IMG/VR virus record: IMGVR_UViG_3300011337_000467
Location: 31,723-95,722 of that record
DNA from: a virus
Lineage: Duplodnaviria > Heunggongvirae > Uroviricota > Caudoviricetes
Strand: one strand, 5' to 3'
DNA length: 64,000 nt
This document shows, piece after piece, positions 7,816 to 63,672 of this stretch. The translations under genes and the position numbers were made by a program. Each line of letters starts with the position of its first letter. Positions within the stretch are counted from its first letter, which is position 1. A model generated the notes under the pieces. It was not told where the DNA came from. It saw only the letters and a list, made by a program, of their open reading frames with translations, and searched no databases.

Positions 7816-7846
7816 TCCTTACTACTGCCCGTTAATTTTTAACGGA

Positions 7847-12900: not shown

Positions 12901-14915
12901 AAAAACCTGCACAAGATCAAGACAGTGCAACCTCTGGCAATTGGGGTGTTTGGGTAGCAATGCTTGATCGCTATGCTGAAATGAATGTTGACGGTCAGTC
13001 TGTAACTAGAAGATTTACTGACCAGGCGGCTGCGCAAGACTGGATACAGGATTACAACACACGGCAACCAGGAAATGGTCTTGCATTAGTTGCTCAAGAG
13101 ATTGAACCATCAGAACCACGAGACACATCACAGTTTGGTGCAGCACGTGGTGCTCCAAACTGGGAAATTCGACGTAACAGTGATCAAGAAGTTGTTCATC
13201 GCTTCAATGCAGACAATCAAAATGCTGCTATGATCCAAGCAACTGATTTTATGAACACTCAAGGATGGAGTAACGACGATTACACTATTCAATCAGCCAA
13301 CAGTCAAACAAATGTAAACCCTTTACGCCCAACTGGTCCAGGTCCGTGGGAAGTGGCCAACAGAAACAACAACCAAGTGTACTACAATACAGAGTTCACA
13401 AATCGCGGTGCCGCAGAATCAGAAGCAAGAACTTGGCTAAGTCAAAATGGCCACAATCCCAACGACTTTGAAGTAAGAACTAGAGAAGGTTCTAGATCAG
13501 ATGCTGAACAAAACGGTATCATTGACATTGAGCCAGACCTAGAATTTGCAAGCCCACAACAATACGAAATTTTTAATAATGATACTGGGCAAATTGCTGT
13601 TGCATTCCTTGCCCCCGATGATAGTGCGGCTATACAAAGATTACTACAGTACCGTGAAACCCATGGAGATGCTGACTATCGTACCCGCCGGTCTGCTGTT
13701 GCAGGATCCACAGCAGCCTTGGCACAACAGAGAGCCACGCCAGGCACATTCTCTGGTGCATGGAAGGTGTTGGTCAACGGTGAAGAAGTTTATAGATTCT
13801 CAGGCGTGGGTAATAGTCAATCGGATGCCAACAGAGTTGCAGCCACTTGGTTGCGAAACAATGGACGGGGCGTGTCAGGCGAAGGCTTTGAAGTGTATCC
13901 TATCATGACAGAAGGCAAGGATCGCTACGGCAATTTTGATCCTCCTGGTCCAGAGACACCGCCCACAATGCCAGCTGGCACTGTGCGAGTGGATGTGAGT
14001 GATGTGTATGACTGGTACAAACTGGGTCAGCATATTTCAAACATGAAGGGTCTGGGCAAACATGACTTTGGCAAAGGACCACCCAGTGCTATCATAAGTT
14101 TTGGTGACGAAGATCTAGAACATCAGTATATACAGGCATTGAAACAAACTGGGCTAACCACTACTGACATTGATCCTGTGGATCCCGCACAACCTGCAGG
14201 CATGCCGCGTCAAAAGACTGATCCTACCTACAATGTAACTGAAGCTGATGCCAGCGACTATGAACTGCATGATAGACCCAAGCTGGACCAAGTGTTGGCC
14301 AAATGCTGTCGCATGGTTGTACAAGGTCAACAGCGAGATCCCAAACGCTATGGACAAGTTGCTGCCTGTGTGATTGACCCCGACAACCGAATGATCTACG
14401 GCATCAACTTGCCTGCTAAAGATGGCACACGCCGCCATGCTGAACGAGTGGCCATAGACAAGTATAGAAAATCCATTGGTGAAATTCCACAAGGTAGTAT
14501 TGTGGTTACAACTTGCAGTCCCTGCAACTCGCCCATGGAAGAACGCCACGGAGAAAGTTGCAAAGACTTGTTAAACTCTGTAGGCATACACAAAGTATAT
14601 GCCGGCTATCAAGACCCCACACAGCATGACGATTCGGACGCTGACTTCCGTGTGTATGTGACTGAGAATGACCAACTATGGGGCGAATGTCAGTTGTTTG
14701 CTCAAACATTCTTGGGCAAGGAAGAACTGCCTGAAAACTTTGCTGATGGTCGGAATCCGCAAGACAAGGGCGATTCAAAAAGACACGGCGTGCCCACCAA
14801 AGCATCAGTAAGCACCTTGCGTAAAGTGGCCAAACAAGGCGGTCGCAAAGGGCAACTGGCACATTGGATGGCCAACATGAAGGCTGGGCGGGCTAAAGCC
14901 AAACGCAATAAATAA
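9909..14915 (+). CDS. Giant polyvalent protein: nucleotidyltransferase + HExxH metallopeptidase + GS-like amidoligase + 5 tandem repeats + CDA-like nucleotide deaminase
   Basis: Motifs in order: 'GSNAAYSYTPYSDIDLHLVV' (minimal NTase G[GS]...DxD), 'HELAH' (Zn peptidase), 'GLEFVSPP...GLHINISV' (amidoligase_2-like), five ~45-aa repeats, then 'HAE...TCSPCNSPMEE' (deaminase H[AC]E/PCxxC). Confidence 0.7.
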   Translation: MHITELDSFKLSDAVKFHNRLNPKIWGRDEHLLPEVREKLMAIADNFREFLGVGDLDVRDITISGSNAAYSYTPYSDIDLHLVVEFPADDEVYQELFNAKKYQYNDEHNLAIGGVPVELYVQNAAESPVSQGEYSIPREEWIQVPRRKRARIDDTCVRAKVEDLDARIHSAIQSGNAEHMSRLWDKIKSMRQSGLDAHGEFGCENIVFKILRNKGCIKDLRTARTAAQDHELSLKEQDHAPQFHWGFAEGHQGQPYSSPDGVAPSTQMFLNEDDTENMVQQFIQDTAERLGIERMPEIVLHDNDGWSEENHSFGMYIPDQHVLHVNIRNRHIMDILRTTAHELAHCRQNELEQLDHTSGNTGSPIENEAHAVAGIIMRDFADAHPDLFDQEAIRESSGYIPTKAQANDPRFKMALTVDVQPGQTGKEANKMRLATDAQGHPQLLRADGKIKLAESLAQEFELFEEQDLFEINMGSKSLRREAAKTGAIAGMEFEMIVPGMESEDPEQEPDYDQDERCVSIDDAVNFFHDGDYNGRREVAELRDRMYNDFTEWQDDKIRDSWGMDGEEYLREWIVNNVDEDEWADLDADKTDSLDQFVANVYADPSSDYYNQAFDEYREENQDNWDESDWLDAEDLDRMSGIESAYDITWPYWTSINSGEIDADQVADEFSQAVGREVRVNTRYHQSGARPDPSNQFYVVEPDGSLEGDNPGDEGLEFVSPPMPIDELLKDLNAVKSWAGRMGVYTNSSTGLHINISVPDYSRDRLDFVKLALLLGDEYVLKQFGRSSNTYTKSALGKVRDRVRSNPEDAQRLLDKMKGQMGELASKAIHSGSTDKYTSINTKDGHIEFRSPGGDWLDDNFDKIENTLLRFTVAMSAALNPEAYREEYQKKLYKLLTQDQKDSDTIRYFSDYVAGKIPKAALRSFVKQAQLERKVKRGEAGNQKMWWSVTNPPQSSAGIEVVATSREEAIEKALGPDGYPSWTNTRQSIVAKPVRPYEEKPAQDQDSATSGNWGVWVAMLDRYAEMNVDGQSVTRRFTDQAAAQDWIQDYNTRQPGNGLALVAQEIEPSEPRDTSQFGAARGAPNWEIRRNSDQEVVHRFNADNQNAAMIQATDFMNTQGWSNDDYTIQSANSQTNVNPLRPTGPGPWEVANRNNNQVYYNTEFTNRGAAESEARTWLSQNGHNPNDFEVRTREGSRSDAEQNGIIDIEPDLEFASPQQYEIFNNDTGQIAVAFLAPDDSAAIQRLLQYRETHGDADYRTRRSAVAGSTAALAQQRATPGTFSGAWKVLVNGEEVYRFSGVGNSQSDANRVAATWLRNNGRGVSGEGFEVYPIMTEGKDRYGNFDPPGPETPPTMPAGTVRVDVSDVYDWYKLGQHISNMKGLGKHDFGKGPPSAIISFGDEDLEHQYIQALKQTGLTTTDIDPVDPAQPAGMPRQKTDPTYNVTEADASDYELHDRPKLDQVLAKCCRMVVQGQQRDPKRYGQVAACVIDPDNRMIYGINLPAKDGTRRHAERVAIDKYRKSIGEIPQGSIVVTTCSPCNSPMEERHGESCKDLLNSVGIHKVYAGYQDPTQHDDSDADFRVYVTENDQLWGECQLFAQTFLGKEELPENFADGRNPQDKGDSKRHGVPTKASVSTLRKVAKQGGRKGQLAHWMANMKAGRAKAKRNK

Positions 14916-14921: not shown

Positions 14922-15269
14922 ATGACTTACAAAGAGATTCTCGAAGCCTGCTGGGACGGTTATCGCCGCAAACCCGGCACCACCGAGTATTCCAAAGGCA
15001 GTTGTGAAAAGATCAGCGAGCAGGATCTGGAAGAAAATCTCCGAAACTGGTTCAAAGAAAAATGGGTACGCTTTGGGCCTGATGGCAAAATCCGTGGTAA
15101 TTGTGCCAGAGACAGTTCAAAAGAAGGCAAGCCCAAGTGTTTGCCGCAGGCCAAGGCACATGCTCTAGGCAAGAAAGGCCGAGCATCAGCAGCAGCCAGA
15201 AAACGCAGACAAGATCCCAATCCCAACCGCAAAGGACCGGCCATTAATGTGGCCACAAAGAAAAAATGA
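14922..15269 (+). CDS. Small basic protein (Lys/Arg-rich C-terminus), possibly a nucleic-acid-binding or internal virion protein
   Basis: 115-aa ORF 6 nt after the giant gene. C-terminus 'KKGRASAAARKRRQDPNPNRKGP'. Confidence 0.4.
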   Translation: MTYKEILEACWDGYRRKPGTTEYSKGSCEKISEQDLEENLRNWFKEKWVRFGPDGKIRGNCARDSSKEGKPKCLPQAKAHALGKKGRASAAARKRRQDPNPNRKGPAINVATKKK

Positions 15270-16489
15270 TTATAACTGACTTATTTGAATCTCATCAAAC
15301 CTGCCCCGAATGCGGCGGTCCTTCGTTTTCAGACTTGATCCTGGCTGAGAAAAAAGATGCCTGTTACTATAAAGTCAAAGCGTCGGCTAAGGTATGGCCA
15401 TCAGCCTATGCGTCAGGACGACTGGTTCAGTGTCGTAAAAAAGGCGCTGACAACTATGGCAACAGCAAGAACGAAGGTGTGATGGAAATGGACAAATCAC
15501 AAACTCCTCCGGGTCGTGATGGTAGTAACGATTCAGACGCCGGCAAGAAAGAATACACTGCTAAAGCAACCACTGCTAAAAAAGTAGCCCAGGATGCTGA
15601 AAAGATTCTAAACAAAGAGTTAAACAAGAAGAAAGGCATGGCGGAAGGCTTCCCTCATGATGTTGACCACATGCCGGGTCCTGTGATTCGCAATGCTGAT
15701 ATGACTACAGATAATGTCAAGACCAAAGACCAAGCAGAATGGGACAGAGCCACTGATAGCATTAACGCACGGGTGTTTGATGACATGAGTGAATTTCGCA
15801 CCGACAGCAAAGGTGAAACAGTTGTCGGTGATAGCGCAGTTTGGGCCAAGTGGGACAACGCCACGCAAACAGGTTGGTTCAATGCTAAAGGTCGCCCATT
15901 AAAGCCTTGGCCTGTTAAAGAGCAAGGTGTGGCAGAAGACCAGTTGGCAGAAAAGTCAGTGAGCCAAGCACAATTCCGCACCATGGCAGCGGCAGCACAC
16001 AATCCCAAATTTGCCAAGAAAGTTGGCATCAGTCCGGCAGTGGCAAAAGAGTTTCACTCTGCAGACAAAAACAGCAACTACAAAAAACTTCCTGACCGCA
16101 CCACAGAAGGCGAAGTTGAAAAAACCAAAACAGGCATGATACATCGTAGCAGTGGTGCATATGGTGGTGGTGAAGCACCACGTGCTTATTATGATCCGGG
16201 CAAATATGCCAAAGACATTGATCATTTAGACAAAGGTTTAACTGCCAAATTAGACAAGAGTATGGGCATTAAATGGCCACATGGTAACAAAAAATCAGGC
16301 ATGGACGAAGGCGAACAACAAAAGGGTGCTGACTATCGTGATCCGCCCGAAGCCGACTACGGCGATGACTATCAAGACATGGTTGCCAGAGTGAAAAAAT
16401 TAGCTGGACTGGGTCCGTTAAAAACTGTGTATGATCCTGCCCGGCGTGTGTACCGAAATGTACCAACAGCTCAACAACCTAAAAAATGA
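15266..16489 (+). CDS. Lys-rich protein with an N-terminal zinc-ribbon (CPECGG...C)
   Basis: ATGA start/stop overlap with the upstream gene. 'CPECGG' plus downstream Cys. Long K/E/D-rich low-complexity body. Confidence 0.4.
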   Translation: MIITDLFESHQTCPECGGPSFSDLILAEKKDACYYKVKASAKVWPSAYASGRLVQCRKKGADNYGNSKNEGVMEMDKSQTPPGRDGSNDSDAGKKEYTAKATTAKKVAQDAEKILNKELNKKKGMAEGFPHDVDHMPGPVIRNADMTTDNVKTKDQAEWDRATDSINARVFDDMSEFRTDSKGETVVGDSAVWAKWDNATQTGWFNAKGRPLKPWPVKEQGVAEDQLAEKSVSQAQFRTMAAAAHNPKFAKKVGISPAVAKEFHSADKNSNYKKLPDRTTEGEVEKTKTGMIHRSSGAYGGGEAPRAYYDPGKYAKDIDHLDKGLTAKLDKSMGIKWPHGNKKSGMDEGEQQKGADYRDPPEADYGDDYQDMVARVKKLAGLGPLKTVYDPARRVYRNVPTAQQPKK

Positions 16490-17004: not shown

Positions 17005-17814
17005 ATGATTGATATCTGCACAGTTGTATTTGAATCCGAACTTGACATTCTAAAACTACAAGCCCGTAGCATTGAGCTATATTGTAAAGACATCGGCTTG
17101 AAAAATATCTTTGTAATGGTGAATGATCTTAGCCGAGTAGATCCTGCCTGGTATGGTGCATTTGCTGATCATGTAAAAATCGTTCCAAGATCTGCATTTG
17201 GTTGCGCTTGGAGTGACAACGGTTGGGTCAGTCAACAAGTGTTAAAGATATTAGGTGCAGCTCAGAGTGAGAATACCTGGTGCATGATTGTAGATGCCAA
17301 AACACTATTTGTGCGACCAATTGAGTTGGATCAAGTGATAGTAGACGGGCGTGCTGCTACAGGAAGTATGCCAATCTATCCTGTATTTGATGCCAGCCGA
17401 AACATAACCAACCAGTTGTTTGATATTGATTTGCCAGCACAGTTAGGCCCCGGTGGTGTGCCATTTTTTGTTGAACCCAGTTTAACAAGAGAAATGATTC
17501 AAGAAGTAGAACACAGAACTGGCCAAGACTTTAGTGACTACTTTCAACAACAGGGTCGGCTTACAGAGTTCATATTGTATTCAGGCTATGTGTGGTACCG
17601 AGATTGCACATTTGACAAGAGATATCACACACAATCAAACATTCATCCTGCTAATCTTTGCCACAGTGAAACAGGCATCTTTGATTCAAAACTTAACACA
17701 ATGAATCAGCCCAAAACTCTCACAGTAAGCATACACAGAAATGCATGGTCACAACTAAGCAAAGAACAACAGCAACAATATCATACATTGTTAGCCGAAA
17801 GAGGCATCTTATGA
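17005..17814 (+). CDS. Hypothetical protein
   Basis: 269-aa ORF; no motif recognised. Confidence 0.4.
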   Translation: MIDICTVVFESELDILKLQARSIELYCKDIGLKNIFVMVNDLSRVDPAWYGAFADHVKIVPRSAFGCAWSDNGWVSQQVLKILGAAQSENTWCMIVDAKTLFVRPIELDQVIVDGRAATGSMPIYPVFDASRNITNQLFDIDLPAQLGPGGVPFFVEPSLTREMIQEVEHRTGQDFSDYFQQQGRLTEFILYSGYVWYRDCTFDKRYHTQSNIHPANLCHSETGIFDSKLNTMNQPKTLTVSIHRNAWSQLSKEQQQQYHTLLAERGIL

Positions 17815-18326
17815 AAGCCTTGTGCTTGGTAGCACATCCAGATGACTGTGTGATATTTGCACTCAGTTATATTCACAATCATGCTGACCATGACTGGACT
17901 ATTGGCTACTTGACCTATACAGAGCAAGATCCTCGTGGATCAGAACTCTCTGACTTTTGGCACAAGCGTGGAATCAACTGTGTGTTCTTGGGCTTTGAAG
18001 ATCATTGGCACGACAATGAACAACAACGATTCACATGCTGGTCTGCACTAGATGCAGAAACAGCCTGCGCACAGTTGGCAGCCAACTACGACTTGATTCT
18101 CACACACGACAAGCAGGGGGATTATGGACACATACATCATCGTTTGGTTTACCGAGCTGTAGCCAATCATCCACGAGTGGTTACTTTTGCTCCGCCGGGC
18201 CAAGGAACTGTGACCTACACTGTGCCACCAGATACATATAGCATAGATGAACTACCACTGCATGGTGAGATTGTGCGTGGCTTTCATCCCATAACACATC
18301 AAAACGATTACAAGGAACGTCAATGA
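17811..18326 (+). CDS. LmbE/PIG-L family N-acetylglucosaminyl deacetylase-like protein
   Basis: 'LVAHPDDCVIFA' matches the AHPDDE zinc-binding signature of PIG-L/LmbE deacetylases. Start chosen at the ATG overlapping the upstream stop (ATGA at 17811). Confidence 0.55.
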   Translation: MKALCLVAHPDDCVIFALSYIHNHADHDWTIGYLTYTEQDPRGSELSDFWHKRGINCVFLGFEDHWHDNEQQRFTCWSALDAETACAQLAANYDLILTHDKQGDYGHIHHRLVYRAVANHPRVVTFAPPGQGTVTYTVPPDTYSIDELPLHGEIVRGFHPITHQNDYKERQ

Positions 18327-19132: not shown

Positions 19133-20247
19133 TTCACAACAAAATTCTGTAGCTGTTGAGTGTTTTCCTGTTCAAACTCATACAGTCTATTGTGATTGTG
19201 GTCTAGTCTGGGTTTTAATTTTTTCAGCAGTGCAGGCAAATCTTGACTGCACAACCATTGCACTTGTTCAAGCGCACCATGCCATCTTGCAATGTCGTCT
19301 GGCTTGTTGTCGTATGATTCGTCTATGACATCGCCAAAAGTTTCAAATCCCCAGTCTCGGTAATATTGCAAAAACCCTTGTATAGCAAATACCACAAACA
19401 GTCTGCGAGCTTGCAGGCATTTGGCCATTTTTTCTGCTGACAAAAATATGCGGTCTTCAGAGACGTGTTTGCCCAGAGTTTCACACACCACTGAAAACCA
19501 AGTACGATTGTATATTTCCCATGGCACAAATCCACTGACTGAATGGTCCATTTGAGATTTTACTTCCCATAAAGGGTCAAGGTGTGGGCTCACATAAGGA
19601 TATTGCAATTTTGTGTTGTTAAACAGTGCAGTCACACGTTCAGGAGTTTGATTGATCCAATGGCCCACAAACAGATCTCTGTAGGTCACAATGCCTTGCT
19701 CCAGTAATCCTGATTGTTGTAGACCCAGCATGGCAAAGTCTCTGTGCTCGCGCCTGGCTCCTAGCAAACACTCAAATGCATACGGGCGGTCAAGTGGGAA
19801 ATCCACACGTGGTGGATTCCAACGTAGGAAATTAAAACTCCAGGCTGGTCTGTAAATTACTCTTGGGTCAGCAGGTTCATCCAACCAAATGCTGGCTGTG
19901 TGCAATAGCCAATTTTTGACTCCTGTGGTCTCGATCCAGGTCACAAGTTCTTTTTTGCTGCGCCATTCGATGTCAGTGAATAACACAAGATCAAACTCAT
20001 GCAAAGGAAATTGCATGTACTCTGGACAATAATCAAACTTGTTAGGCAAACTGTAAAACACTGGCATCACTGCTATGCGATGCGGCTGTGCCAGGGCAGT
20101 TGGCAAATCCACAATCTGCTTGAAATCAAACCCCCATTCAGTTGCGTGGTAACCCGGAGAAAATACCTTAAGTGTGGCGTGCAAGTCTTTCACGAATCTT
20201 GTCCATGTAGTAATCAAACTTAGGAATTTCTTTTTTGTCCCAGTCAA
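19120..20247 (-). CDS. GT10-like (fucosyltransferase-family) glycosyltransferase, paralogue 1
   Basis: C-terminal block 'FLSAEKMAKCL...GFETFGDVIDESYD' is shared with the 52167 and 55315 minus-strand ORFs ('ITEKT..IPILIGHPG...F.D..D.SYD'), reminiscent of the GT10 YxTEK/IPV motif. Confidence 0.35.
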   Translation of the reverse strand: MTGTKKKFLSLITTWTRFVKDLHATLKVFSPGYHATEWGFDFKQIVDLPTALAQPHRIAVMPVFYSLPNKFDYCPEYMQFPLHEFDLVLFTDIEWRSKKELVTWIETTGVKNWLLHTASIWLDEPADPRVIYRPAWSFNFLRWNPPRVDFPLDRPYAFECLLGARREHRDFAMLGLQQSGLLEQGIVTYRDLFVGHWINQTPERVTALFNNTKLQYPYVSPHLDPLWEVKSQMDHSVSGFVPWEIYNRTWFSVVCETLGKHVSEDRIFLSAEKMAKCLQARRLFVVFAIQGFLQYYRDWGFETFGDVIDESYDNKPDDIARWHGALEQVQWLCSQDLPALLKKLKPRLDHNHNRLYEFEQENTQQLQNFVVNHLK

Positions 20248-21052
20248 ACTGCAAACTGCGACTTAGGTCAGGCACAGCATCACACACAGCAGTATGGTAA
20301 GTGGGGTCAAAGTCGCCAATCTTTTCCATGTCGTCATAGTGATATCTACGCTGGAATTCCATGGTTATATCCTGACGACTCATGGCCCAGTTGCCAATGA
20401 ATTCGTATTCAGAGAACCAACGAATCAGTTCACCATTGCCCCAAGGTGGCACAGTAGGCTCGGGCGGGCATGAGTCAATCATGGCATTCAGCCATTTTTT
20501 GTTGTGTGTTTGTTCCAGGAACTTCACAAGGTCGTTGAAGTCTTTTTTCAGCACAGGCACAAACTCTGAAATAAAGCAGTGTGGTGTGAGTCGGTCAAAG
20601 CCCAGAGCATTCTTGATGCTCTCATAGTAACCCCAACTGTGCCGTTCGTTTTCTAACACCATAAAGTTCAGCTTGCCATCTTTAAAGGGCTCGTAGTCTT
20701 TGATCAACAAGCAATCACAGTCATGCATGATCATGAGATCGTAATCTAAATAATCTAAGAAAGCAAACTTGATGGCCTGTTGACGCAACCAGTAGGTTCT
20801 ATAGTCGCCTTCAAAAACCCAGTCATTAACTTCAGGATATATTCTGTAAATTTCCGAGTCAGGTGCATAGTCAAATTTTGCAGTGTCTATACCGTGCTTT
20901 TCAAATACTTCCCAAAGTTCATCTTTGGGCACAGGACTGGCAATGCAAGTTCTATCCACACCAATAAGGTGTTGAGTAAATTCTGGTTGTAGGCTCATTA
21001 TAGCATGCGGCACACGATAGCGTGCTAGGTATAAGATTTTTGCGCTGGTCAT
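20168..21052 (-). CDS. Hypothetical protein
   Basis: Minus-strand ORF. Start set at Met 'MTSAK' (21052) to avoid overlapping the upstream minus gene. No motif recognised. Confidence 0.4.
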   Translation of the reverse strand: MTSAKILYLARYRVPHAIMSLQPEFTQHLIGVDRTCIASPVPKDELWEVFEKHGIDTAKFDYAPDSEIYRIYPEVNDWVFEGDYRTYWLRQQAIKFAFLDYLDYDLMIMHDCDCLLIKDYEPFKDGKLNFMVLENERHSWGYYESIKNALGFDRLTPHCFISEFVPVLKKDFNDLVKFLEQTHNKKWLNAMIDSCPPEPTVPPWGNGELIRWFSEYEFIGNWAMSRQDITMEFQRRYHYDDMEKIGDFDPTYHTAVCDAVPDLSRSLQFDWDKKEIPKFDYYMDKIRERLARHT

Positions 21053-21060
21053 GGCATTAA

Positions 21061-22125
21061 TTATAGAGTAGCAACAGCAGAGGCTGTTTTCCCGCAAGTG
21101 CTAACACACTGATATGGTCTGCCTTCGGCAATGCTGGATTTGCTCCATGCTTGTTCTACACTTTCAAACCAGGCCAAACAATGTTCCAATGGATACTGCA
21201 ACGCATTGTTTTCTTGTACCATGGGTGCCAGTTCCTTGTTGCCCGGATGACTCATGGTGTGTGGATAAAACCCTAAAAAGCAACATGGATACACACTACC
21301 ATCTGCGGCAATGTATATTTCTTGATTTTGTTTGTGAATACAGTTCATTGACAAATTTGGAACATCTTTGTGAGAACGATATGTTTTAGAATCATACCAA
21401 GTGACATGATTTTCTAACAATGCTTCAATTGTTGGAACTTCACCAGGTTCAGCGAGTCCAATCACATGACTAAACTTTCCATCTCTAGTGAATACTGGTC
21501 CACGATCTCGTCCATCGTATATGTTTTCAAATTCAAAAAAACCCAGATCATGTGCCAGCTGGCGGCATTCTTGTTCTTGATGGCGATTGTGATCAAAAGG
21601 CACAAATCGCCACACAGCCCGACCTCCTGCACGAATTAGTGCTTGTGCATGATCAATGATTCTGTGCCAATCTGTGTCTTGACGATATAATTTGTGAGTG
21701 TCACTCATGCCGTCGATTGCAAATCCCACTGTGACTCTGGGTAGTGCTAGTCTGCTCCACCAGTCTGGGCTGCGTAAACTACCATTGGTATTGATATGAA
21801 CTGGCACGTTGTGAGCAGCAATATATTCAACTATGTCTACCGCATCACGAGCTGATGCAAAATCACCAAGATTGCCATTAAATGTAATGCCTCTAAATCC
21901 AAACACTGTTGGTATTCGACCATTAATAGGTTCGTCAGGGCGAATTAGTTGCGCCAGCAGTTCAGGAGTAACAATGTGTTTGAAATCTGCTAGAGACAAT
22001 TCACATGTTGGGTATCCAGAATTGTATTCGTACCCTCTATAATTTCGCATGCACATGGGACATCTTGCATTGCATCTTGTGGTCAATTCAATATGCAATC
22101 GACGAATTTCTGATAGTTTTAACAT
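21061..22125 (-). CDS. Radical SAM enzyme (subfamily B; C-terminal Cys-rich SPASM/twitch-like extension)
   Basis: 'IELTTRCNARCPMC' CxxxCxxC within ~25 aa of the chosen start, and 'PCCF' plus further Cys near the C-terminus. Strong paralogy with 50795..51820. Confidence 0.6.
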   Translation of the reverse strand: MLKLSEIRRLHIELTTRCNARCPMCMRNYRGYEYNSGYPTCELSLADFKHIVTPELLAQLIRPDEPINGRIPTVFGFRGITFNGNLGDFASARDAVDIVEYIAAHNVPVHINTNGSLRSPDWWSRLALPRVTVGFAIDGMSDTHKLYRQDTDWHRIIDHAQALIRAGGRAVWRFVPFDHNRHQEQECRQLAHDLGFFEFENIYDGRDRGPVFTRDGKFSHVIGLAEPGEVPTIEALLENHVTWYDSKTYRSHKDVPNLSMNCIHKQNQEIYIAADGSVYPCCFLGFYPHTMSHPGNKELAPMVQENNALQYPLEHCLAWFESVEQAWSKSSIAEGRPYQCVSTCGKTASAVATL

Positions 22126-22162
22126 TGTGATATTTATAGCTGTATATTTGACTAAATATCTA

Positions 22163-22462
22163 ATGCAGACCAAATCAGTTCAAGTTCATTGTGATGTTTA
22201 TTGCAAGTGGGATGGCAATGACACCCGCTATAGACTGTATGTAAATGACGAGTTGTTTACAGAAAGATCATGGATTTGGAATGGTAAAGAGTATTACTTA
22301 GAAGAAGTGATAGTGATTGAAGCACCTCCAGGATTGTACAAAATTAAATATGAACTGGTGGAACCGTGTGGCAGCAAACTAAAAATAAGAAACATGCGAG
22401 TAGTCAGTAAAAATGCTGCGATACACGACGATCAAATAACATTGGAAATACCATCATCATGA
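22163..22462 (+). CDS. Hypothetical protein
   Basis: 100-aa ORF starting at Met 'MQTKS', divergent from the minus-strand radical SAM gene. Confidence 0.35.
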   Translation: MQTKSVQVHCDVYCKWDGNDTRYRLYVNDELFTERSWIWNGKEYYLEEVIVIEAPPGLYKIKYELVEPCGSKLKIRNMRVVSKNAAIHDDQITLEIPSS

Positions 22463-22677
22463 GAATGAAAGAAATAATGGAAAATGCGTCAGTAGGTGGC
22501 ACTAGTTCAGGGTCTATAGCACCTGTAAGTCAGCCATTGGGCATGGTGTCAAGATCTGGCGGATCCATGTTAAGTGGTAAATATGTAACAGGCTCTGATC
22601 CTACACCGAACACGCCTAAGGAATACAAAAGGAATAAACATGTTAGCGGACGCTTTAAAAACTCTCCTGGCAACTGA
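22459..22677 (+). CDS. Small Gly/Ser-rich hypothetical protein
   Basis: ATGA overlap with the upstream gene. 72 aa. The 3' end overlaps the Dps-like gene start. Confidence 0.3.
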   Translation: MRMKEIMENASVGGTSSGSIAPVSQPLGMVSRSGGSMLSGKYVTGSDPTPNTPKEYKRNKHVSGRFKNSPGN

Positions 22678-23083
22678 GTATGCTTTCAGCATCAAAGCCC
22701 AGCTGTTTCACTGGAATGTGGAAGGACCGGACTTTGCTCAATTACACGAGTTTTTTGGAAACTTGTATGAAGAAGTCTATAACGGATCAATAGACCGAAC
22801 CGCTGAATACATTCGCGCACTAGGCGACTACTCGCCGGGCAGTTTTGAGCGTTTTGCTGAGCTGTCAGAAATCAAGGGCCAGACCAAGATACCTCGTGCC
22901 CGACTCATGATTGAAGAACTGTTGGCTAACAACACCCAACTGTTGGAACTTCTTAACCAATGCTTTGCTGTTGCTGAACAAGAAAATCAACAAGGCATCG
23001 CTAATTTTATAGCAGAACGCATTGATGCTCAACAAAAGCATGGCTGGATGCTGAGAAGTTTCTTGAAAGACGAAAGAGCATGA
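22640..23083 (+). CDS. Dps-like (DNA-binding ferritin-like) protein
   Basis: 'AQLFHWNVEGPDFAQLHEFFGNLYEEV' matches the Dps ferroxidase-site block (HWNV.G..F..LHE.FEE.Y). The 147-aa length is typical. Confidence 0.6.
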   Translation: MLADALKTLLATEYAFSIKAQLFHWNVEGPDFAQLHEFFGNLYEEVYNGSIDRTAEYIRALGDYSPGSFERFAELSEIKGQTKIPRARLMIEELLANNTQLLELLNQCFAVAEQENQQGIANFIAERIDAQQKHGWMLRSFLKDERA

Positions 23084-23766
23084 GCAACGACATTAGAGAC
23101 ATACTGCAACGTTTGAGTATAGTAGAAGGCAAAACTACTCCAGTAAACGTTAAACATGGACTTAATCAACAACAAAAATCAGTGCATCAATTGCCAGCAT
23201 TGTTCAAGCCGCACAGCATTCGAGCACTAGGTGCCAAGACAGATCCTCAACATCCCATGCATGGTGAGTTAGTGGGCGACTCTGTTGTTCCAAAGAAACC
23301 ATCGCTTGGAGAGGCCATGCAAGAAGTCGAAGAAGATATGTTGAGCAAGGTCAAAAAAGACCTCACACAGTATCTTGATCAACTGGAGAAAAAAGTCCGA
23401 GTTGATCGTGAACTCAAAGACAAAGCCAAAGACGCTGTGGAAAAACACACCGCCGAAGAAGAAATTGAAGAAAACGATTATGAACTAACTGATCCTAGCA
23501 CAGTGCATGGCATCGAAGACAACATAGATACCCAACTAGGCAATCCACAACAGCCCATCAAAGTCATGGAACTGGATGACGGTGCCATATTTGAAATACA
23601 CGGTGATGAAGGCAACGGTTATGAAATACGCCATCGTGGTCGTAGCTTGCCCAGTCGATTCCGCACATCTGACGAAGCAGGCATAGCAGTTGATTTGTTC
23701 CGCGCTCATAAACAGCGTAATCGGCCAGAACAAAATCTCAATCAAGATTACATAGAAGAACGATAA
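23080..23766 (+). CDS. Acidic hypothetical protein
   Basis: ATGA overlap with the upstream gene. 228 aa, D/E-rich with a predicted coiled coil. Confidence 0.4.
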   Translation: MSNDIRDILQRLSIVEGKTTPVNVKHGLNQQQKSVHQLPALFKPHSIRALGAKTDPQHPMHGELVGDSVVPKKPSLGEAMQEVEEDMLSKVKKDLTQYLDQLEKKVRVDRELKDKAKDAVEKHTAEEEIEENDYELTDPSTVHGIEDNIDTQLGNPQQPIKVMELDDGAIFEIHGDEGNGYEIRHRGRSLPSRFRTSDEAGIAVDLFRAHKQRNRPEQNLNQDYIEER

Positions 23767-23767: not shown

Positions 23768-24136
23768 ATGAAACTTGCTGATTTATTTGAAAACGATAGT
23801 TTGACAGATTATTTCAAACAGCTACAAAAAAATAATCCTCAATTTGCCAATCTCCGTATACATGGTGATCCAGAACATGACGAGCTACGCAAACAAGATC
23901 GAACAGCGTATCTGGCTCGACAAACACAAGCAGCAAAATCTGCAGCAGCAGATGCAGCGTCAGTTGATGTTGATGCATTGAAAAGAGAACTGTCTGCAAA
24001 ACAAGACAAATATAAACAACTAGGCGGCGACAGTTATCAATATGCCGACCGCATGATGCCCCGAGACCTCGAGGCACAGGCATTACACCAACAGATCAAT
24101 TCCCTAGCGAGAAGAATTCAAGCCGCAGGTGGCTAA
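23768..24136 (+). CDS. Hypothetical protein
   Basis: 122-aa ORF 2 nt after the previous stop. Confidence 0.4.
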   Translation: MKLADLFENDSLTDYFKQLQKNNPQFANLRIHGDPEHDELRKQDRTAYLARQTQAAKSAAADAASVDVDALKRELSAKQDKYKQLGGDSYQYADRMMPRDLEAQALHQQINSLARRIQAAGG

Positions 24137-24222: not shown

Positions 24223-24251
24223 TTGACATTCCTCTGCTAAAACTGTATACT
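24223..24251 (+). promoter_or_regulatory. sigma70-type promoter (TTGACA-17-TATACT)
   Basis: TTGACA at 24223-24228, 17-nt spacer, TATACT at 24246-24251. AGGAGG Shine-Dalgarno and ATG at 24271 follow. Confidence 0.55.
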
Positions 24252-24270
24252 TGTTTTTTTAGGAGGCTCT

Positions 24271-24528
24271 ATGAGCAAGACATTTAACGGCGAACAAAAA
24301 CTCAAACTTACCCAAATCATCAACGAAGGCATGCAAGTGCTTCACGAGATCGAAACACTCAACGGCGGACTCACTGACACTATCAAGGCTGTGGCCGAAG
24401 AGTTGGAAATCAAACCTGCCATTCTCAAGAAGGCCATCAAACTGGCACACAAGGCTGAATTTGGCAAAGAAAAACAAGATCACGAAACTCTAGAAACAAT
24501 TCTTGAAACTGTTGGAAAAACTCTTTAA
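24271..24528 (+). CDS. Small hypothetical protein
   Basis: Preceded by the promoter and a strong AGGAGG Shine-Dalgarno. 85 aa. Confidence 0.5.
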   Translation: MSKTFNGEQKLKLTQIINEGMQVLHEIETLNGGLTDTIKAVAEELEIKPAILKKAIKLAHKAEFGKEKQDHETLETILETVGKTL

Positions 24529-24533: not shown

Positions 24534-25121
24534 ATGCAACAATCATTTCTAATGTCTGCTAAGTCTATAGTTCTTGTGTCTGCCAGCAGAACTGGGTCAA
24601 TGTTAGTGTGGCATAATTTGAATTGGCACGTCAAATTCAAACTTCCAATAGTTCACACTCACAATGCCTTGGTTGACGTTGCAGATGATCAACTGGTGGT
24701 TATAAGTCGACGACAAAATAACTTTGACACTATTGTCAGCAGTTTGGTAGGACAACGTACCAAAGAATTTGTAAAGTATACTGGCAAAAACATTAGTAGT
24801 TTTTTTGTAAGTAAAGACGAGTTTGAAAAAACTTTTTGGTTTGTGGAATGTCATCAGCAGCTGACTCAAACAAGATTTACAGAAGCAGTTATTGTTGAGT
24901 TTGAACCGTTGATTAATGATTCTCTCTACTTGTTTGGTTTATTTGGCATTGCCAAAGAAACAGATTATCGATTTCTACAAAAGTCGCCGTATCGTGCTTG
25001 CGACTTGATTGAAAATTATGTAGAATGCAAGTCTTGGTTCAATCAATTAAAAGAAGAGACATCTTTAGACCATAATATAATGGGCAACTTCTTATCCGAG
25101 CACAAACAAATGTACAGCTGA
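24534..25121 (+). CDS. Hypothetical protein, possibly sulfotransferase-like
   Basis: 'VLVSASRTGSMLV' resembles the PAPS-binding P-loop of Stf-type sulfotransferases. Weak, single motif only. Confidence 0.3.
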   Translation: MQQSFLMSAKSIVLVSASRTGSMLVWHNLNWHVKFKLPIVHTHNALVDVADDQLVVISRRQNNFDTIVSSLVGQRTKEFVKYTGKNISSFFVSKDEFEKTFWFVECHQQLTQTRFTEAVIVEFEPLINDSLYLFGLFGIAKETDYRFLQKSPYRACDLIENYVECKSWFNQLKEETSLDHNIMGNFLSEHKQMYS

Positions 25122-25200: not shown

Positions 25201-27861
25201 ATGAGCTATATCGACGCACTGTTTGATCGTGAACACGATCGCATTCATGTTGTAGAACGCCGCAATGGCGAACGAGTCTACAAAGAATATCCTGCCAACT
25301 ACATCTTCTATTATGACGATCCTAGAGGCAAGTTCCAAAGTATTTACGGCACACCTGTAAATAGATTCTCATCGCGCAACAACAAAGAATTTCGCAAGGA
25401 AGTTCGCAGCCAGTCTGGCAAGCAGTTGTATGAATCAGACATCAATCCCATCTTTAGATGCTTGGAAGAAAACTACAAAGACCAAGATGCTCCGGAACTG
25501 CACACAGCATTTTTCGACATTGAAGTTGCGTTTGACCAAGAGCGCGGATTCTCACCTGTGGCAGATCCATTCAATCCTATCACTGCAATATCTGTATATT
25601 TGGACTGGTTGGATCAGATGATCACACTGGCAGTGCCGCCCAAACATCTAAGTTGGGACACAGCACAAGAGCTGGTGAGTGAGTTTGAAAACACCATCTT
25701 GTTTGAGCGTGAAGAAGACATGATCAAGATGTTCCTGGACGTGATTGAAGGTGCAGATGTACTTACAGGCTGGAACTCAGAAGGCTATGACATTCCTTAC
25801 ACAGTAAATCGTACCACACGAATACTCAGCAAGGACGACACAAGGCGTTTTTGTTTGTGGGGTCAGTTTCCCAAGCAACGTATGTTTGAACGCTTTGGCG
25901 CAGAGAATCAGACCTACGACTTGATTGGTCGTGTGCATATGGACTATATGCAGTTGTATCGCAAGTACACATACGAAGAACGCCACTCATACAGTTTGGA
26001 TGCTATTGGCGAATACGAACTGGGCGAACGCAAAACACAGTTTGAAGGCACACTGGATCAGTTGTACAACCAACACTTTAAGAAGTTCATTGAGTACAAC
26101 CGCCAAGACACCATGATCATTGCCAAACTGGACAAGAAATTGCGCTTCTTGGATCTGGCCAATGAACTGGCACATGCCAATACTGTGTTGCTACAAACCA
26201 CAATGGGTGCGGTGGCAGTGACTGAACAGGCCATTATCAATGAAGCACACGAACGTGGCATGGTTGTGCCCAATCGCAAGCAACGCCTCACAGATGATGA
26301 CACACAGGCTGCAGGTGCTTACGTAGCATATCCTAAAAAGGGCTTGCACATGTGGATTGGATCAGTGGACATCAATTCACTATATCCATCAGCCATTCGT
26401 GCCATGAACATGGGTCCAGAAACTGTGGTAGGTCAATTGCGGCAGACCATGACTGATCATTTGATCAAAGCCAACATGGCCAAGGGACAAAGTTTTGCGG
26501 CTGCATGGGAAGGCCTGTTTGCCAGCTTAGAATACACAGCCGTAATGGAACAGCAACGTGGCACAGAAATTACCATTGACTGGGAAGGCGGCGAAGAGTC
26601 AGTCCACTCGGCCATGGAAATCTGGCACATGATCTTTGATAGCAACCAGCCCTGGATCCTCACTGCCAATGGTACCATTCTCACTTACGAGAAGAAAGGT
26701 ATCATCCCCGGCTTGCTAGAACGCTGGTATCGTGAGCGACAAGAGCTACAGGCCAAGAAGAAAGAAACCAAGGATCCCAAAGAGATTGCGTTCTGGGACA
26801 AGCGTCAGCTGGTCAAGAAGATTAACCTTAACTCCTTGTATGGTGCTATTTTGAATCCAGGCTGTAGATTCTTTGACAAGCGCATTGGGCAGTCAACCAC
26901 ACTGGCAGGCAGATCAATTGCCAAGCACATGGATGCTCACATCAACGAGTGTATCACAGGCGAATATGATCACACAGGCAAGGCCATCATCTATGGTGAT
27001 ACAGACTCATGCTATTTCTCTGCGTGGCCCATACTGGAAAAAGAAGTTGCAGAAGGACGTATGGAATGGTCAAAAGAAACTTGCATCCAACTGTATGACT
27101 CAATTGCTGATCAGGTAAACGAGAGCTTTCCAGCGTTTATGGAACAGGCATTCCATTGTCCCAGAGACATGGGATCCTTGATCAAAGCTGGCCGTGAACT
27201 GGTTGCTGACCGCAGTTTGTTCATTACCAAGAAGCGTTATGCTGTGAACATCATTGACTTGGAAGGCAAGCGATTGGATGTGGATGGCAAGATTGGCAAG
27301 ACCAAGGCTATGGGCTTGGATTTGAAACGCAGTGATACTCCCAAAGTAATTCAAGACTTCTTGCTAGAAATTCTAAATAAAGTACTGGCAGGTACACAAC
27401 GAGATGAAATTATTGAACGCATTAGAGAATTCAAGTATGAATTCAAAGAGCGGCCAGGCTGGGAGAAAGGGTCACCCAAGCGTGTGAACAACTTGACCAA
27501 GTATGCGGCAGAAGAAGCACGTCTTGGCAAAGCAAACATGCCCGGGCACGTTAGAGCCGCAATGAACTGGAATCAAATGCGTAGAATGAATTCAGACAAC
27601 TACTCAATGCAGGTCGTGGATGGTATGAAAACCATTGTGTGCAAACTCAAATCAAATGCACTTGGATGGACGTCAATTGGCTATCCTACCGATGAACAAA
27701 GATTGCCTGCATGGTTTACTGAACTGCCGTTTGACGATGGGTTAATGGAAGCAACTGTTGTGGATCAAAAGGTCGATAACTTGCTGGGTGTGTTGGAGTG
27801 GGACCTTGCGGCTGCTACCAACACAGAAAACACTTTTACATCACTATTTTCATTCGAATGA
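25201..27861 (+). CDS. Family B DNA polymerase (T4 gp43-like) with 3'-5' exonuclease domain
   Basis: Exo I 'FFDIEV', motif A 'DINSLYPSAI', 'KKRY' and motif C 'YGDTDS' are all present in the expected order. Confidence 0.9.
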   Translation: MSYIDALFDREHDRIHVVERRNGERVYKEYPANYIFYYDDPRGKFQSIYGTPVNRFSSRNNKEFRKEVRSQSGKQLYESDINPIFRCLEENYKDQDAPELHTAFFDIEVAFDQERGFSPVADPFNPITAISVYLDWLDQMITLAVPPKHLSWDTAQELVSEFENTILFEREEDMIKMFLDVIEGADVLTGWNSEGYDIPYTVNRTTRILSKDDTRRFCLWGQFPKQRMFERFGAENQTYDLIGRVHMDYMQLYRKYTYEERHSYSLDAIGEYELGERKTQFEGTLDQLYNQHFKKFIEYNRQDTMIIAKLDKKLRFLDLANELAHANTVLLQTTMGAVAVTEQAIINEAHERGMVVPNRKQRLTDDDTQAAGAYVAYPKKGLHMWIGSVDINSLYPSAIRAMNMGPETVVGQLRQTMTDHLIKANMAKGQSFAAAWEGLFASLEYTAVMEQQRGTEITIDWEGGEESVHSAMEIWHMIFDSNQPWILTANGTILTYEKKGIIPGLLERWYRERQELQAKKKETKDPKEIAFWDKRQLVKKINLNSLYGAILNPGCRFFDKRIGQSTTLAGRSIAKHMDAHINECITGEYDHTGKAIIYGDTDSCYFSAWPILEKEVAEGRMEWSKETCIQLYDSIADQVNESFPAFMEQAFHCPRDMGSLIKAGRELVADRSLFITKKRYAVNIIDLEGKRLDVDGKIGKTKAMGLDLKRSDTPKVIQDFLLEILNKVLAGTQRDEIIERIREFKYEFKERPGWEKGSPKRVNNLTKYAAEEARLGKANMPGHVRAAMNWNQMRRMNSDNYSMQVVDGMKTIVCKLKSNALGWTSIGYPTDEQRLPAWFTELPFDDGLMEATVVDQKVDNLLGVLEWDLAAATNTENTFTSLFSFE

Positions 27862-29574: not shown

Positions 29575-30567
29575 ATGATACAAGTAAATCCTTTTATTTT
29601 TTCAAGTTATTCAAGAGGAAGTACTGAGATTGCACACGACTGTGATCGACCGTTTAAAACTTTGACCGTCAATCTTGAGGGAAATTGTTTTTTATGTATA
29701 TGTGATGCATGGTTACCGGTTAGTGTAGGCAACGTACTCGATTTTGAATCACTGAGTGATATTTGGAACAATCCTATAGCACAGAAACTACAACAAACTG
29801 TCAAGGATCGTAAATTTACCTATTGTGCTGTAGATACGTGCGGTGTTATGGACAGAAATATAACAACACCGGACTACAGAATTAATTTTGCCATTGATGA
29901 TAGTTGCAATTTGGCCTGTCCAAGTTGTCGCGTCGGTGCTATTAACTATATCGAAGGCCCTGTGTTTGAACGTAAACTTGCACAGGTTAAACATTTTGTT
30001 AAACTGATTAATGAATTTACAGAACCGATGTCAATCGTTATGACAGGTAATGGTGATCCATTGGCCAGTTTGATCATGCGCCCATTGGTGTTAAATTGGA
30101 AACCAAAATCAAATCAAAGTGTTATACTTTTTACCAATGGATTGTTGATGAAAAAATTATTACCAGACAGTGGTATATTACCAAACATTCAAGAATTTCT
30201 AATTAGTGTAGATGCTGGTAGTAAAGAAGTTTACGAAGTAGTCAGGCGTCCTGGGCGGTTTGATGTACTACAGGATAATCTTAGTTGGTTATCTAAAAAC
30301 CGTAGACCGAACACAAATGTACTATTAAAATTTGTGTTACAATCAAAAAACTTTAATGATCTTGAAAACTTTTCTAATATGTGTCTTGAGTATGGATTTC
30401 TAGGAGAAGTTACTAAAATTGATAAATGGAATATCAAGGATTTTGATAGTCACGATGTTATTGGTAATAAGCAACATCCAAATCATGAATTGGCTGTACA
30501 AAAATTGCTCGAGATTTCAACATATAAACACATAACCATTGGATCGAGTCTTAAACAATTACTATGA
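29575..30567 (+). CDS. Radical SAM enzyme (subfamily A; N-terminal Cys-containing extension)
   Basis: 'DDSCNLACPSCRVG' CxxxCxxC and 'MTGNGDP' glycine motif. The N-terminal ~100 aa carry 'CFLCICDAW' and 'CAVDTC', analogous to 7847..8932. Confidence 0.6.
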   Translation: MIQVNPFIFSSYSRGSTEIAHDCDRPFKTLTVNLEGNCFLCICDAWLPVSVGNVLDFESLSDIWNNPIAQKLQQTVKDRKFTYCAVDTCGVMDRNITTPDYRINFAIDDSCNLACPSCRVGAINYIEGPVFERKLAQVKHFVKLINEFTEPMSIVMTGNGDPLASLIMRPLVLNWKPKSNQSVILFTNGLLMKKLLPDSGILPNIQEFLISVDAGSKEVYEVVRRPGRFDVLQDNLSWLSKNRRPNTNVLLKFVLQSKNFNDLENFSNMCLEYGFLGEVTKIDKWNIKDFDSHDVIGNKQHPNHELAVQKLLEISTYKHITIGSSLKQLL

Positions 30568-34531: not shown

Positions 34532-35490
34532 TTGTAATTGTAACCGGCTCAGCTGGATATATTGGTGGTCAGACCATGCTCACATTGAAAGATGCTGGGC
34601 ATACAGTGTACGGCATTGACCGTAGAGATCCTCCCAAGCATCTTCAAGGTGTGCCCGACGGATTCTTGTGTGAAGATTTTTCTACTGATACTGCCCTAAG
34701 TTGGATCATACAAAAACAACCCAATGCTATTATCCATTGTGCTGGCACCAGTCTTGTGGGTCCTTCAGTAAAGAATCCTTCAGAATACTACAACAACAAT
34801 GTGGCCAAAACATTGAAGTTGTTGGACATTGTTAAACAAAGCATGCCTCGTTGTAAGTTGGTGTTTAGTTCTAGTGCTGCCACATACGGCGAACCTATCA
34901 TGAATCCCATACACGAAGTGGATCCTAAAGAGCCTGTCAGTCCGTATGGTGAATCTAAACTGATGATTGACATGATGCTGGAAAGCTATCACCGGGCATA
35001 CGGTCTTGACTATGTGAGCTTTCGTTACTTCAATGCTTGTGGTGCCGATCCTGAAGGTAGGCACGGACAAGAGCCAGGTGCCACACACTTGATTGCTAAA
35101 TTTTTAGAGGCCACAAGAGATGATGGACAGTTCAGAATATATGGTGATGATTACCCTACTGCTGATGGTACTTGCATTCGCGATTATGTGCATGTGGATG
35201 ATATCGCCCGAGCCCACGCTTTGGCGTTGTATCACAAAATCCCTGCAGGGGTCTACAACCTTGGATCAAATCAAGGGTTCAGTGTCAAACAGGTAATAGA
35301 GCAGGCAAAAACTATCACTGGCAAGATGCCTCACATTGGCACAGAGGCTCGTCGAGCAGGCGATCCACCTGAACTGATTGCAAGTCCAGACAAGTTTAAC
35401 CTGGTTGCAGGGGCTTGGCGGCATCATGATTTAGATGACATGATTCAACACGCATGGAACTGGTATGTTCGACAAGATAAAAAAGTTTGA
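34528..35490 (+). CDS. NAD-dependent sugar epimerase/dehydratase (GalE-like short-chain dehydrogenase)
   Basis: 'VTGSAGYIGG' Rossmann motif and 'SPYGESK' catalytic YxxxK. 320 aa. Confidence 0.8.
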   Translation: MIVIVTGSAGYIGGQTMLTLKDAGHTVYGIDRRDPPKHLQGVPDGFLCEDFSTDTALSWIIQKQPNAIIHCAGTSLVGPSVKNPSEYYNNNVAKTLKLLDIVKQSMPRCKLVFSSSAATYGEPIMNPIHEVDPKEPVSPYGESKLMIDMMLESYHRAYGLDYVSFRYFNACGADPEGRHGQEPGATHLIAKFLEATRDDGQFRIYGDDYPTADGTCIRDYVHVDDIARAHALALYHKIPAGVYNLGSNQGFSVKQVIEQAKTITGKMPHIGTEARRAGDPPELIASPDKFNLVAGAWRHHDLDDMIQHAWNWYVRQDKKV

Positions 35491-39761: not shown

Positions 39762-39797
39762 GTATTTCTCTAAGCGGCCTGTCCGGCATCATCCCGC

Positions 39798-39826: not shown

Positions 39827-39844
39827 GTCATAGGAGGACAAATA

Positions 39845-63668: not shown

Positions 63669-63672
63669 AACA

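Follow-up and report, generated by a model that had tools for sequence, protein, structure and literature searches.

A phage-encoded Dps-type mini-ferritin in a group of uncultivated jumbo phages and its predicted role in iron and peroxide control

Dps is a textbook bacterial stress protein. Dps or ferritin-like genes have also been described in phages, among them Lactobacillus plantarum myophages (PMC6669764) and ‘Gratiaviridae’ with 36 other gut phages (PMC8008677), and were proposed to limit damage by iron and reactive oxygen species during infection (PMC6669764, PMC8008677). Stand-alone genes of this type were known earlier from the C. tetani phages phiCT9441A, phiCT19406A and phiCTC2A. 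Here, a further phage Dps gene is described, located at positions 22640-23083 on the + strand of a 64,000-nucleotide stretch (hereafter the window) of IMG/VR virus record IMGVR_UViG_3300011337_000467 (positions 31,723 to 95,722 of that record). The earlier genes resemble it in standing alone in tailed phages and in their PHROG family or fold, but they are 17-31% identical to it and come from different lineages and hosts (anaerobes, Firmicutes), and none was described as belonging to the core genes of jumbo phages or tied to late or head functions. The rarity implied in a preliminary description of the window was hence overstated, as phage Dps had been reported (PMC6669764, PMC8008677) and the lineage is that of PHROG 3636; the novelty is modest. 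Noteworthy are the gene's place among the core genes of an abundant clade of jumbo phages, the candidate late-type promoter, the exchange of a carboxylate in the iron pore and the recurrent fusion of related domains to head proteins.

Three described proteins are instructive for comparison. Pseudomonas aeruginosa Dps (Pa Dps; PA0962, PDB 8ff9; PMC10002758) shares with the phage protein the helix layout, the ferroxidase ligands, the absence of basic tails and the pore segment in the turn that joins helices C and D. The two are ~35-40% identical (35% in the structural match) and fall in separate clades; the phage protein differs in having Gly for Glu four residues after the second ligand His (second His +4), one extra residue in helix B and no N-terminal coil, and D129, E130 and D134 of Pa Dps are replaced by Q117, Q118 and N122, and Q138 by E126. 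The classical, tail-less Listeria innocua Dps (1qgh) has in common with it the minimal length, acidic character, inter-subunit H/H/D/E site and predicted acidic three-fold pores (template modelling (TM) score 0.91), but is 22% identical, has D126 and D130 in place of Q118 and N122, and a ligand spacing of 15 instead of 16. Dps of the cultured freshwater T4-like cyanophage S-SRM01 (QPX48251.1), the only lytic isolate among the tblastn matches in the phage collection, shares Gly at His +4, G119 and N122 and is 31% identical. However, it lacks the helix-B insertion, and its gene has porin, histone H1-like and hypothetical genes as neighbours, polB not being close by.

The gene product and its iron sites

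The open reading frame (ORF) runs from ATG to TGA exactly between the positions given above, encodes 147 amino acids (aa) and is preceded by the Shine-Dalgarno sequence AGGA, 6 nt 5′ of the ATG. Its product matched Pfam PF00210 (Ferritin) over residues 4-144 of 147 (E 2.4e-24; 86.3 bits, cut-off 24.5), PHROG 3636 (E 1.3e-27) and, in a sequence search of the PDB, 56 Dps sequences at E <= 0.01 with 8ff9 at the top (E 2.1e-23). These matches are far above chance. An AlphaFold2 model of the monomer, built from an input alignment of 50 diverse homologues, had a mean predicted local distance difference test score (pLDDT) of 96.9 and includes helices A (residues 2-26), B (32-60), C (87-114) and D (118-142), as well as, within the long B-C loop, a short helix (69-75) that is a Dps-specific mark. 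In a Foldseek search of the PDB, the top 50 matches were all Dps 12-mers, the first being 8ff9 (TM 0.93, root-mean-square deviation 1.1 Å). The protein lacks ExxH motifs and has just three His residues, which rules out an intrasubunit di-iron site of the bacterioferritin or DpsL type; with no fifth C-terminal helix in the model and Dps as the top structural matches, identity as a bacterioferritin, ferritin or DpsL was rejected.

The ferroxidase ligands are H24, H36, D52 and E56, with W25 beside H24. In 332 sequences (81 close viral copies, 35 far viral copies, 135 metagenome cluster representatives and 81 cellular proteins) the four ligands were invariant, and W25 was conserved in at least 97%. 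H24, D52 and E56 correspond to the ligands H37, D64 and E68 of Pa Dps (PMC10002758). The ORF is therefore a real, intact Dps-type mini-ferritin, and the family assignment is secure. The preliminary description had named a Dps-family ferritin and left the decision to a full-length alignment with PF00210, the di-iron ligands and the predicted fold: the alignment is near full length, all four ligands are kept and the ferritin fold is predicted with high scores. The signature on which that description relied needs correction, as the full string HWNV.G..F..LHE.FEE.Y has no literal match in the protein, whereas the shorter HWNV.G..F..LHE.F does match; the actual sequence is HWNVEGPDFAQLHEFFGNLYEEVY, with Gly at the second His +4, where classical Dps has Asp or Glu, and YEEVY two residues later. 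Gly at this position was found in 75 of the 81 close copies, 34/35 far copies and 83/135 representatives, compared with Glu in 48, Met in 30 and Gly in one of the 81 cellular sequences. Loss of function through this Gly was considered and rejected, since the nearest cellular Dps have Met there in 30/81 cases.

In Pa Dps, the three-fold ferritin-like pores comprise D125, D129, D130 and D134, and iron is bound at D134 and Q138 (PMC10002758); in the 8ff9 chain as aligned here, residue 130 is Glu, not Asp. D134 and Q138 occupy the positions equivalent to 122 and 126 of the phage protein, whose pore-region residues are E113, Q117, Q118, N122 and E126. Hence, the near-invariant pore Asp residues of cellular relatives at 117 and 122 are Gln and Asn in the phage Dps, with E113 retained. 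Positions 122 and 126, which are one helical turn apart, covary almost perfectly, one of the pair being acidic. Asn at 122 was accompanied by an acidic residue at 126 in 59/59 sequences of the close clade, 26/27 far loci and 83/98 representatives, and Asp at 122 by a non-acidic residue at 126 in 23/23, 8/8 and 30/32, respectively, and in 73/77 cellular sequences, with the qualification that kinship among the sequences inflates all these counts and that Asn at 122 was absent from the cellular set. Each group with Asn at 122 nevertheless contained both combinations. Because the two positions covary and one carboxylate is retained, the pattern is read here as selection for a working iron channel in which one ring of carboxylates is kept, and a ‘neutral pore’ reading was rejected on the same grounds. 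For the iron pore of Dps, the swap between 122 and 126 would serve as a natural experiment.

Distribution, gene neighbourhood and promoter motifs

The family B DNA polymerase gene polB of the window, used as the taxonomic anchor, encodes a protein that shares 50.7% identity with its counterpart in Sinorhizobium phage Phosso (469 kb) and 46.8% with that in Agrobacterium phage Atu_ph07 (490 kb), with Rak2/CBB/GAP32-type jumbo phages as the next relatives (~42%). Phosso and Atu_ph07 are also nearest for the ClpA-like ATPase of the window. As judged by these relationships, the window belongs to a jumbo myovirus. When the 20 kb surrounding the gene were compared with 50,697 phage records by megablast, no match was obtained, hence no close isolate at the DNA level, and tblastn against isolate phages found only four distinct phages, namely three Clostridium tetani phages and S-SRM01, at ~31% identity. 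A related Dps is encoded on at least 600 IMG/VR stretches, and the best 80 of these matches (75-99% identical in Dps, on contigs of up to 300 kb) were used as the close set. Their shared gene order, together with the kinship of polB and the ClpA-like ATPase, bears out that the gene is phage-encoded, as had been proposed. An identical Dps protein is encoded, with the gene order kept, on a 90.9-kb Joint Genome Institute (JGI) contig. A large protein database contains 4752 Dps relatives; in all, there are at least 600 IMG/VR matches and thousands of metagenome proteins. The Lake Biwa jumbo phage LBVG_1, which is related to Atu_ph07 and has the freshwater SAR11 lineage LD12 as its predicted host (bioRxiv 10.1101/655167), may belong to the same group, although this is a lead and not a result; if it does, the likely setting would be oxic surface water.

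In a search of 185,579 bacterial and archaeal species, each represented by one genome, at least 589 confirmed matches were listed, the best of which was 43% identical, and metagenome cluster representatives were up to 44-68% identical to the window Dps. A neighbour-joining tree without bootstrap, its cellular tips drawn from the matches listed, grouped all 44 IMG/VR-derived tips with 110 representatives and a single ‘cellular’ tip as a clade of 155 tips; of the 81 cellular sequences, 78 fell with Pa Dps in another. This indicates that a virus-associated Dps clade exists and that the window gene lies within it; the marks of this viral lineage are Gly at H36+4, G119 and Asn for Asp at 122. The one ‘cellular’ tip, L085 (CAZDNV010000128.1), is a 4.8-kb contig in a ‘Bathyarchaeia’ metagenome-assembled genome that encodes a viral-clade Dps. 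It is most likely a misbinned phage fragment, because an ORF on it is 74% identical to one on the 300-kb viral contig L078. The contigs of the nearest representatives outside the clade (P0121 and P0125) are too short for an informative gene context. One metagenome protein, P0122 (777 aa), has two tandem Dps domains as two matched stretches, an unusual architecture for a Dps.

The Dps gene is the third of a cassette, p99-p72-Dps-p228 (Table 1), in which the order is kept in 67-79 of the 80 close loci and is followed by a variable insert, p85 and polB. The true start of p99 is the ATG at 22163 and not at 22049, because an ORF of the greater length would run into the radical SAM gene on the opposite strand, and because the alignment with distant loci begins only at ~22167. 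The last 38 nt of p72 overlap the start of Dps, and the start of p228 overlaps the Dps stop codon (ATGA), an arrangement that suggests translational coupling of Dps and p228. No informative family was found in Pfam, PHROG or NCBIfam for p99, p72, p228, p122 or a 195-aa ORF; the N-terminus of p72 matches PHROG 17311 (function unknown). The 195-aa ORF is inserted between p85 and polB, is absent from the related locus L043 and present in 3/80 loci, and may be mobile or accessory. The model of the p228 product (pLDDT 67) shows a disordered N-terminus, a long helix (76-130) and a small beta/alpha C-terminal domain with an invariant DY..E at its C-terminus; neither a family match nor, with this poor model, a fold match at E < 0.1 was obtained, and the JGI label ‘HicB family nuclease’ of a truncated homologue could not be confirmed.

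Full-length Dps was present in 80/80 loci, and over the range of Dps identity in the close set the flanking genes fall to 32-60%. Ratios of nonsynonymous to synonymous substitution rates (dN/dS), calculated by the Nei-Gojobori method and read with saturated dS in mind, were 0.090 for Dps, 0.067 for polB and 0.066 for p85, compared with 0.25 for p99, 0.285 for p72 and 0.22 for p228. As judged by these comparisons, Dps belongs, as a strongly conserved gene, to the core of an abundant and uncultivated jumbo-phage group, under purifying selection close to that on polB. This suggests that these phages require control of iron and peroxide chemistry permanently and not as an occasional accessory. Between the window and L043, DNA identity is 93-100% in the flanks and 73-82% in the Dps ORF (22700-23099), with 100% reached again immediately behind the gene. 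Such a drop between near-identical flanks points to exchange of the Dps allele by recombination between close relatives in the phage population. A similar dip is seen inside the radical SAM gene (21400-22000).

The sequence NTAAATA occurs 29 times in the window, and 15 of these sites lie in the 7.7% of the sequence that is non-coding (binomial 5e-10). At seven start codons it ends 4-8 nt upstream, with no Shine-Dalgarno sequence in between. Three known elements resemble NTAAATA: TATAAATA, which is the late promoter of T4; ATAAATA, located ahead of structural genes in CBB and GAP32, both related jumbo phages (PMC5259590); and NATAAATA, the late promoter of T4-like cyanophages (PMC2984593). As a strict 8-mer, TATAAATA was found once in the window, which is the chance level, and only the relaxed form is informative. 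The copy in front of the cassette, CTAAATA, ends 4 nt before the p99 ATG and is a candidate T4-late-type promoter element. It was kept in 20/20 aligned loci, even where a different gene lies upstream, while the remaining spacer varies. A sigma70-like site at 22119-22148 was rejected as the cassette promoter, its -10 hexamer being unconserved and both TAAATA motifs conserved. The gene p85 and polB lie behind a sigma70-type site, TTGACA-17-TATACT followed by TAGGAGG, present in its exact form in 39/77 loci. Because a conserved TAAATA precedes the cassette and a sigma70-type promoter precedes polB, we infer by analogy that the Dps cassette would form a late transcription unit separate from polB; its mRNA would possibly be leaderless or have a very short leader. 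The 85-aa p85 product matches the ‘transcriptional regulator’ PHROG 639, and its near-consensus sigma70 site and TAGGAGG lie within 24223-24280.

Predicted function and alternative explanations

The phage protein is on balance probably a functional Dps 12-mer ferroxidase that serves as a late-made sink for iron and peroxide and not as a DNA coat. In such a particle, four-helix-bundle subunits would assemble into a hollow 12-mer, with two Fe2+ bound at each two-fold interface by H24 and H36 from one side and by D52 and E56 from the neighbouring subunit. The Fe2+ would be oxidised with H2O2 as the preferred oxidant. Iron would enter through acidic three-fold ‘ferritin-like’ pores lined by E113, Q117, Q118 and N122, with the carboxylate shifted one helical turn inwards to E126, and Fe3+ would be deposited as a mineral core. 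The phage would probably make Dps late in infection from the small operon p99-p72-Dps-p228, and the protein would remove Fenton-active iron and peroxide near a very large genome during replication and packaging. Protection from Fe/H2O2 chemistry, which the preliminary description had put forward, is still the most economical reading.

Several observations weigh against this assignment of function. The protein scores below every cut-off of the NCBIfam Dps equivalogs, including PRK09448, the E. coli-type DNA-binding Dps (37.3 bits, cut-off 114). In 74/81 close copies, a one-residue insertion in helix B, confined to the clade of the window, sets the His and Asp/Glu ligands 16 instead of 15 residues apart, and Q117 and N122 in place of Asp may alter uptake kinetics or metal preference. 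TAAATA also precedes enzyme-like genes, namely a radical SAM gene and the gene for a 1668-aa deaminase/amidoligase protein. Finally, late expression and the head-protein fusions found elsewhere would suit a protein associated with the capsid no less than one confined to the cytoplasm.

In that case, the late-made Dps would be packaged in the jumbo head, alone or via cassette partners, with the same ferroxidase chemistry at a different site of action, and would protect the packed genome outside the cell or be ejected with the DNA for the start of the next infection. This is unlikely, though it deserves serious consideration. The conserved late-type TAAATA before the cassette is consistent with it, given ATAAATA before the structural genes of CBB (PMC5259590), as are the fusions. 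Among the 150 best representatives at 50% identity, 46 are proteins longer than 200 aa, all with the PHROG 3636 domain. Their named partners are nearly all head proteins, with 10 member-family matches spread over six families of head maturation protease, 3 each for portal and virion structural protein, and 1 each for minor head protein and head morphogenesis, counts by PHROG that may overlap where one protein matches several families. The sole named non-head partner is one DNA methyltransferase. In P0172 and P0254, protease and portal-like regions are followed by Dps; P0215, in which Dps is joined to Zeta_toxin, is encoded between portal/Mu F and S78 prohead protease genes on a 55-kb lake contig (locus L202), and BFVD contains Dps-domain proteins of 32-40% identity named prohead protease. 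A basic module is likewise fused to Dps in P0150 and P0174 and adjoins it in L184 (4740-5150) and L185 (8914-9380). The module matches ‘virion structural protein’ PHROGs over a short stretch and is 67-80% identical in phages whose Dps are only 40-45% identical.

Against a place in the capsid, the window copy stands alone without an extension or a recognisable targeting peptide, its neighbours are replication, modification and chaperone genes and not head genes, the fusions come from other phages at ~42-47% identity, and for most of the 46 long proteins no partner is annotated. Of the suggestion that Dps might be a structural component, there is thus indirect support in the late-type motif and in homologues fused to or adjoining head proteins, but the window copy is neither fused nor beside head genes. 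A propeptide cleaved by the head protease at A-T-E (residues 11-13) was rejected, as this site is inside helix A. Fusions of Dps with head proteins were not described in the searchable literature, in which nothing relevant was found on Dps with prohead protease, virion proteomics, jumbo phages or auxiliary metabolic genes; Dps and ferritin are unmentioned in a survey of polyvalent proteins.

The fusions in other phages indirectly suggest that the viral Dps lineage is often head-associated. A broader proposal, somewhat more doubtful than packaging of the window copy, would make the lineage a head-associated mini-ferritin that in many aquatic phages lies within polyproteins of head-maturation protease, portal or minor-head type and is here free, late and capsid-loaded. 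If this were true, the virion would carry its own iron and peroxide sink as a phage counterpart of encapsulin ferritin cargo, guarding the packaged genome in sunlit, peroxide-containing water or being co-injected to protect incoming DNA. A Dps clade repeatedly fused to head-maturation proteins could open work on the protection of packaged phage DNA. Encapsulated ferritins are decamers with a C-terminal targeting peptide, lie in an HK97-fold shell and are not Dps 12-mers. Their annular form has been described (bioRxiv 10.1101/785121). The likeness to encapsulin cargo, a ferritin-superfamily iron oxidase in an HK97-type shell, is therefore an analogy only, suggested by the head-protease and portal fusions elsewhere, and neither a targeting peptide nor a shell gene is linked to the window gene.

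Dps might, alternatively, act as a depot that captures iron and passes it to the [4Fe-4S] clusters of phage radical SAM enzymes. The preliminary description had noted many such enzymes, and the 64-kb window does contain five radical SAM genes, including QueE of the 7-deazaguanine pathway. In 41/80 loci, the cassette has as its divergent neighbour a radical SAM/SPASM gene with a TAAATA motif of its own, back-to-back with that of the cassette, and the iron pore is clearly constrained. However, no iron-release partner, Fe-S scaffold of the IscU/SufB type or reductase was found near the gene, far viral loci have Dps without a radical SAM neighbour, and no radical SAM gene was found in the covered stretch of 39/80 close loci, some of which, such as L016 and L021, cover ~7 kb upstream and have other genes there. 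Dps cores are small and are mainly protective sinks. A depot is thus improbable.

A DNA-directed role, in which the protein binds or condenses DNA like E. coli Dps, or cuts it like P. aeruginosa Dps, for phage compaction or host chromosome degradation, is very improbable. The label ‘DNA binding protein’ of PHROG 3636 would favour it, but this is an inherited annotation with no test behind it. Dps also lies upstream of polB in 63/80 close and 11 far loci, but polB is under a separate and different promoter. The subunit has an isoelectric point (pI) of 4.87 and a net charge of -8; helix A begins at residue 2, only one of the first 12 residues is basic, and there is no C-terminal tail. L. innocua Dps is not known to bind DNA, and the pI calculated for its presumed sequence is the same, 4.87. 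Because the phage subunit is acidic and has no basic tails, condensation of DNA in the E. coli manner is unlikely, and the DNA-compacting function named in the preliminary description was not borne out. The nuclease residues of Pa Dps are undefined and offer nothing to compare with.

That the gene is a bacterial dps from a contig of cellular origin, or was captured recently from a host, hardly merits belief: IMG pipelines do give the usual bacterial name ‘starvation-inducible DNA-binding protein’, but the idea is refuted by the kinship of polB and the ClpA-like ATPase to Phosso and Atu_ph07, the common synteny of the IMG/VR matches on viral contigs, the 43% ceiling among the cellular matches listed, the separate viral clade with its sole ‘cellular’ tip most likely misbinned, and a Dps GC content equal to that of the surroundings.

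Other genes of the window

The features of the window are collected in Table 1. The basic module discussed above contains Cys (KWVRFGPDGKIRGNCAR...KCLP) and occurs in the window in p115 and p407; it may be compared with PF11450 (DUF3008) in P0174.

Table 1. Positions of the Dps cassette, promoter-like motifs and other features in the window.
Feature	Position	Strand	Remark
DnaJ	1913-2698		J domain and C-terminal domain
ClpA/ClpB-like ATPase	2757-5036		759 aa
NTAAATA sites before starts	6705, 9894, 14908, 22152, 41059	+	
NTAAATA sites before starts	22131, 53120	-	
Starts behind NTAAATA	6718, 9909, 14922, 41070	+	also the p99 start
Start behind NTAAATA	53114	-	also the radical SAM/SPASM start
Radical SAM-type genes	7763-8932, 29575-30567, 50795-51820		two of the five in the window with SPASM
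1668-aa ORF	9909-14915		GTAAATA before start
p115	14922-15269		basic module
p407	15266-16489		basic module
Sugar-modifying genes	17005-17814, 17745-18326, 20168-21097, 34528-36061, 43015-43872		
Radical SAM/SPASM gene	21061-22125	-	divergent from cassette
TATAAATA motif	22131-22138	-	5 nt before radical SAM/SPASM start
CTAAATA	22152-22158	+	candidate element before p99
p99	22163-22462	+	first cassette gene
p72	22459-22677	+	small, basic (pI 10.2), low-complexity; 75/80 loci
Dps	22640-23083	+	
p228	23080-23766	+	acidic; 79/80 loci
p122	23768-24136	+	last ORF before next promoter; variable, 4/80 loci
Sigma70-type promoter-like site	24223-24251	+	before p85 and polB
195-aa ORF	24534-25121		between p85 and polB
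polB	25201-27861	+	3′ of Dps
FolE (GTP cyclohydrolase I)	36114-36806		
QueD-like	39677-40342		
QueE-like	44632-45504		radical SAM-type
tRNA cluster	63594-63851		Met-CAT, Arg-TCT, Leu-TAA

The genes for FolE, QueD-like and QueE-like proteins suggest the start of a 7-deazaguanine (preQ0-type) pathway and hence modified phage DNA. The 1668-aa ORF has a Pfam cytidine/dCMP deaminase domain, matches Amidoligase_2 weakly and resembles the ‘polyvalent’ multi-enzyme proteins of phages. DnaJ and the ClpA/ClpB-like ATPase form a chaperone/unfoldase pair. The sugar-modifying set consists of two DUF6492 proteins, a PIG-L deacetylase, an NAD-dependent epimerase/dehydratase, a fragment of a DegT-type aminotransferase and a glycosyltransferase. 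The three tRNA genes stand at the end of the window, with CTAAATA 24 nt upstream of the cluster.

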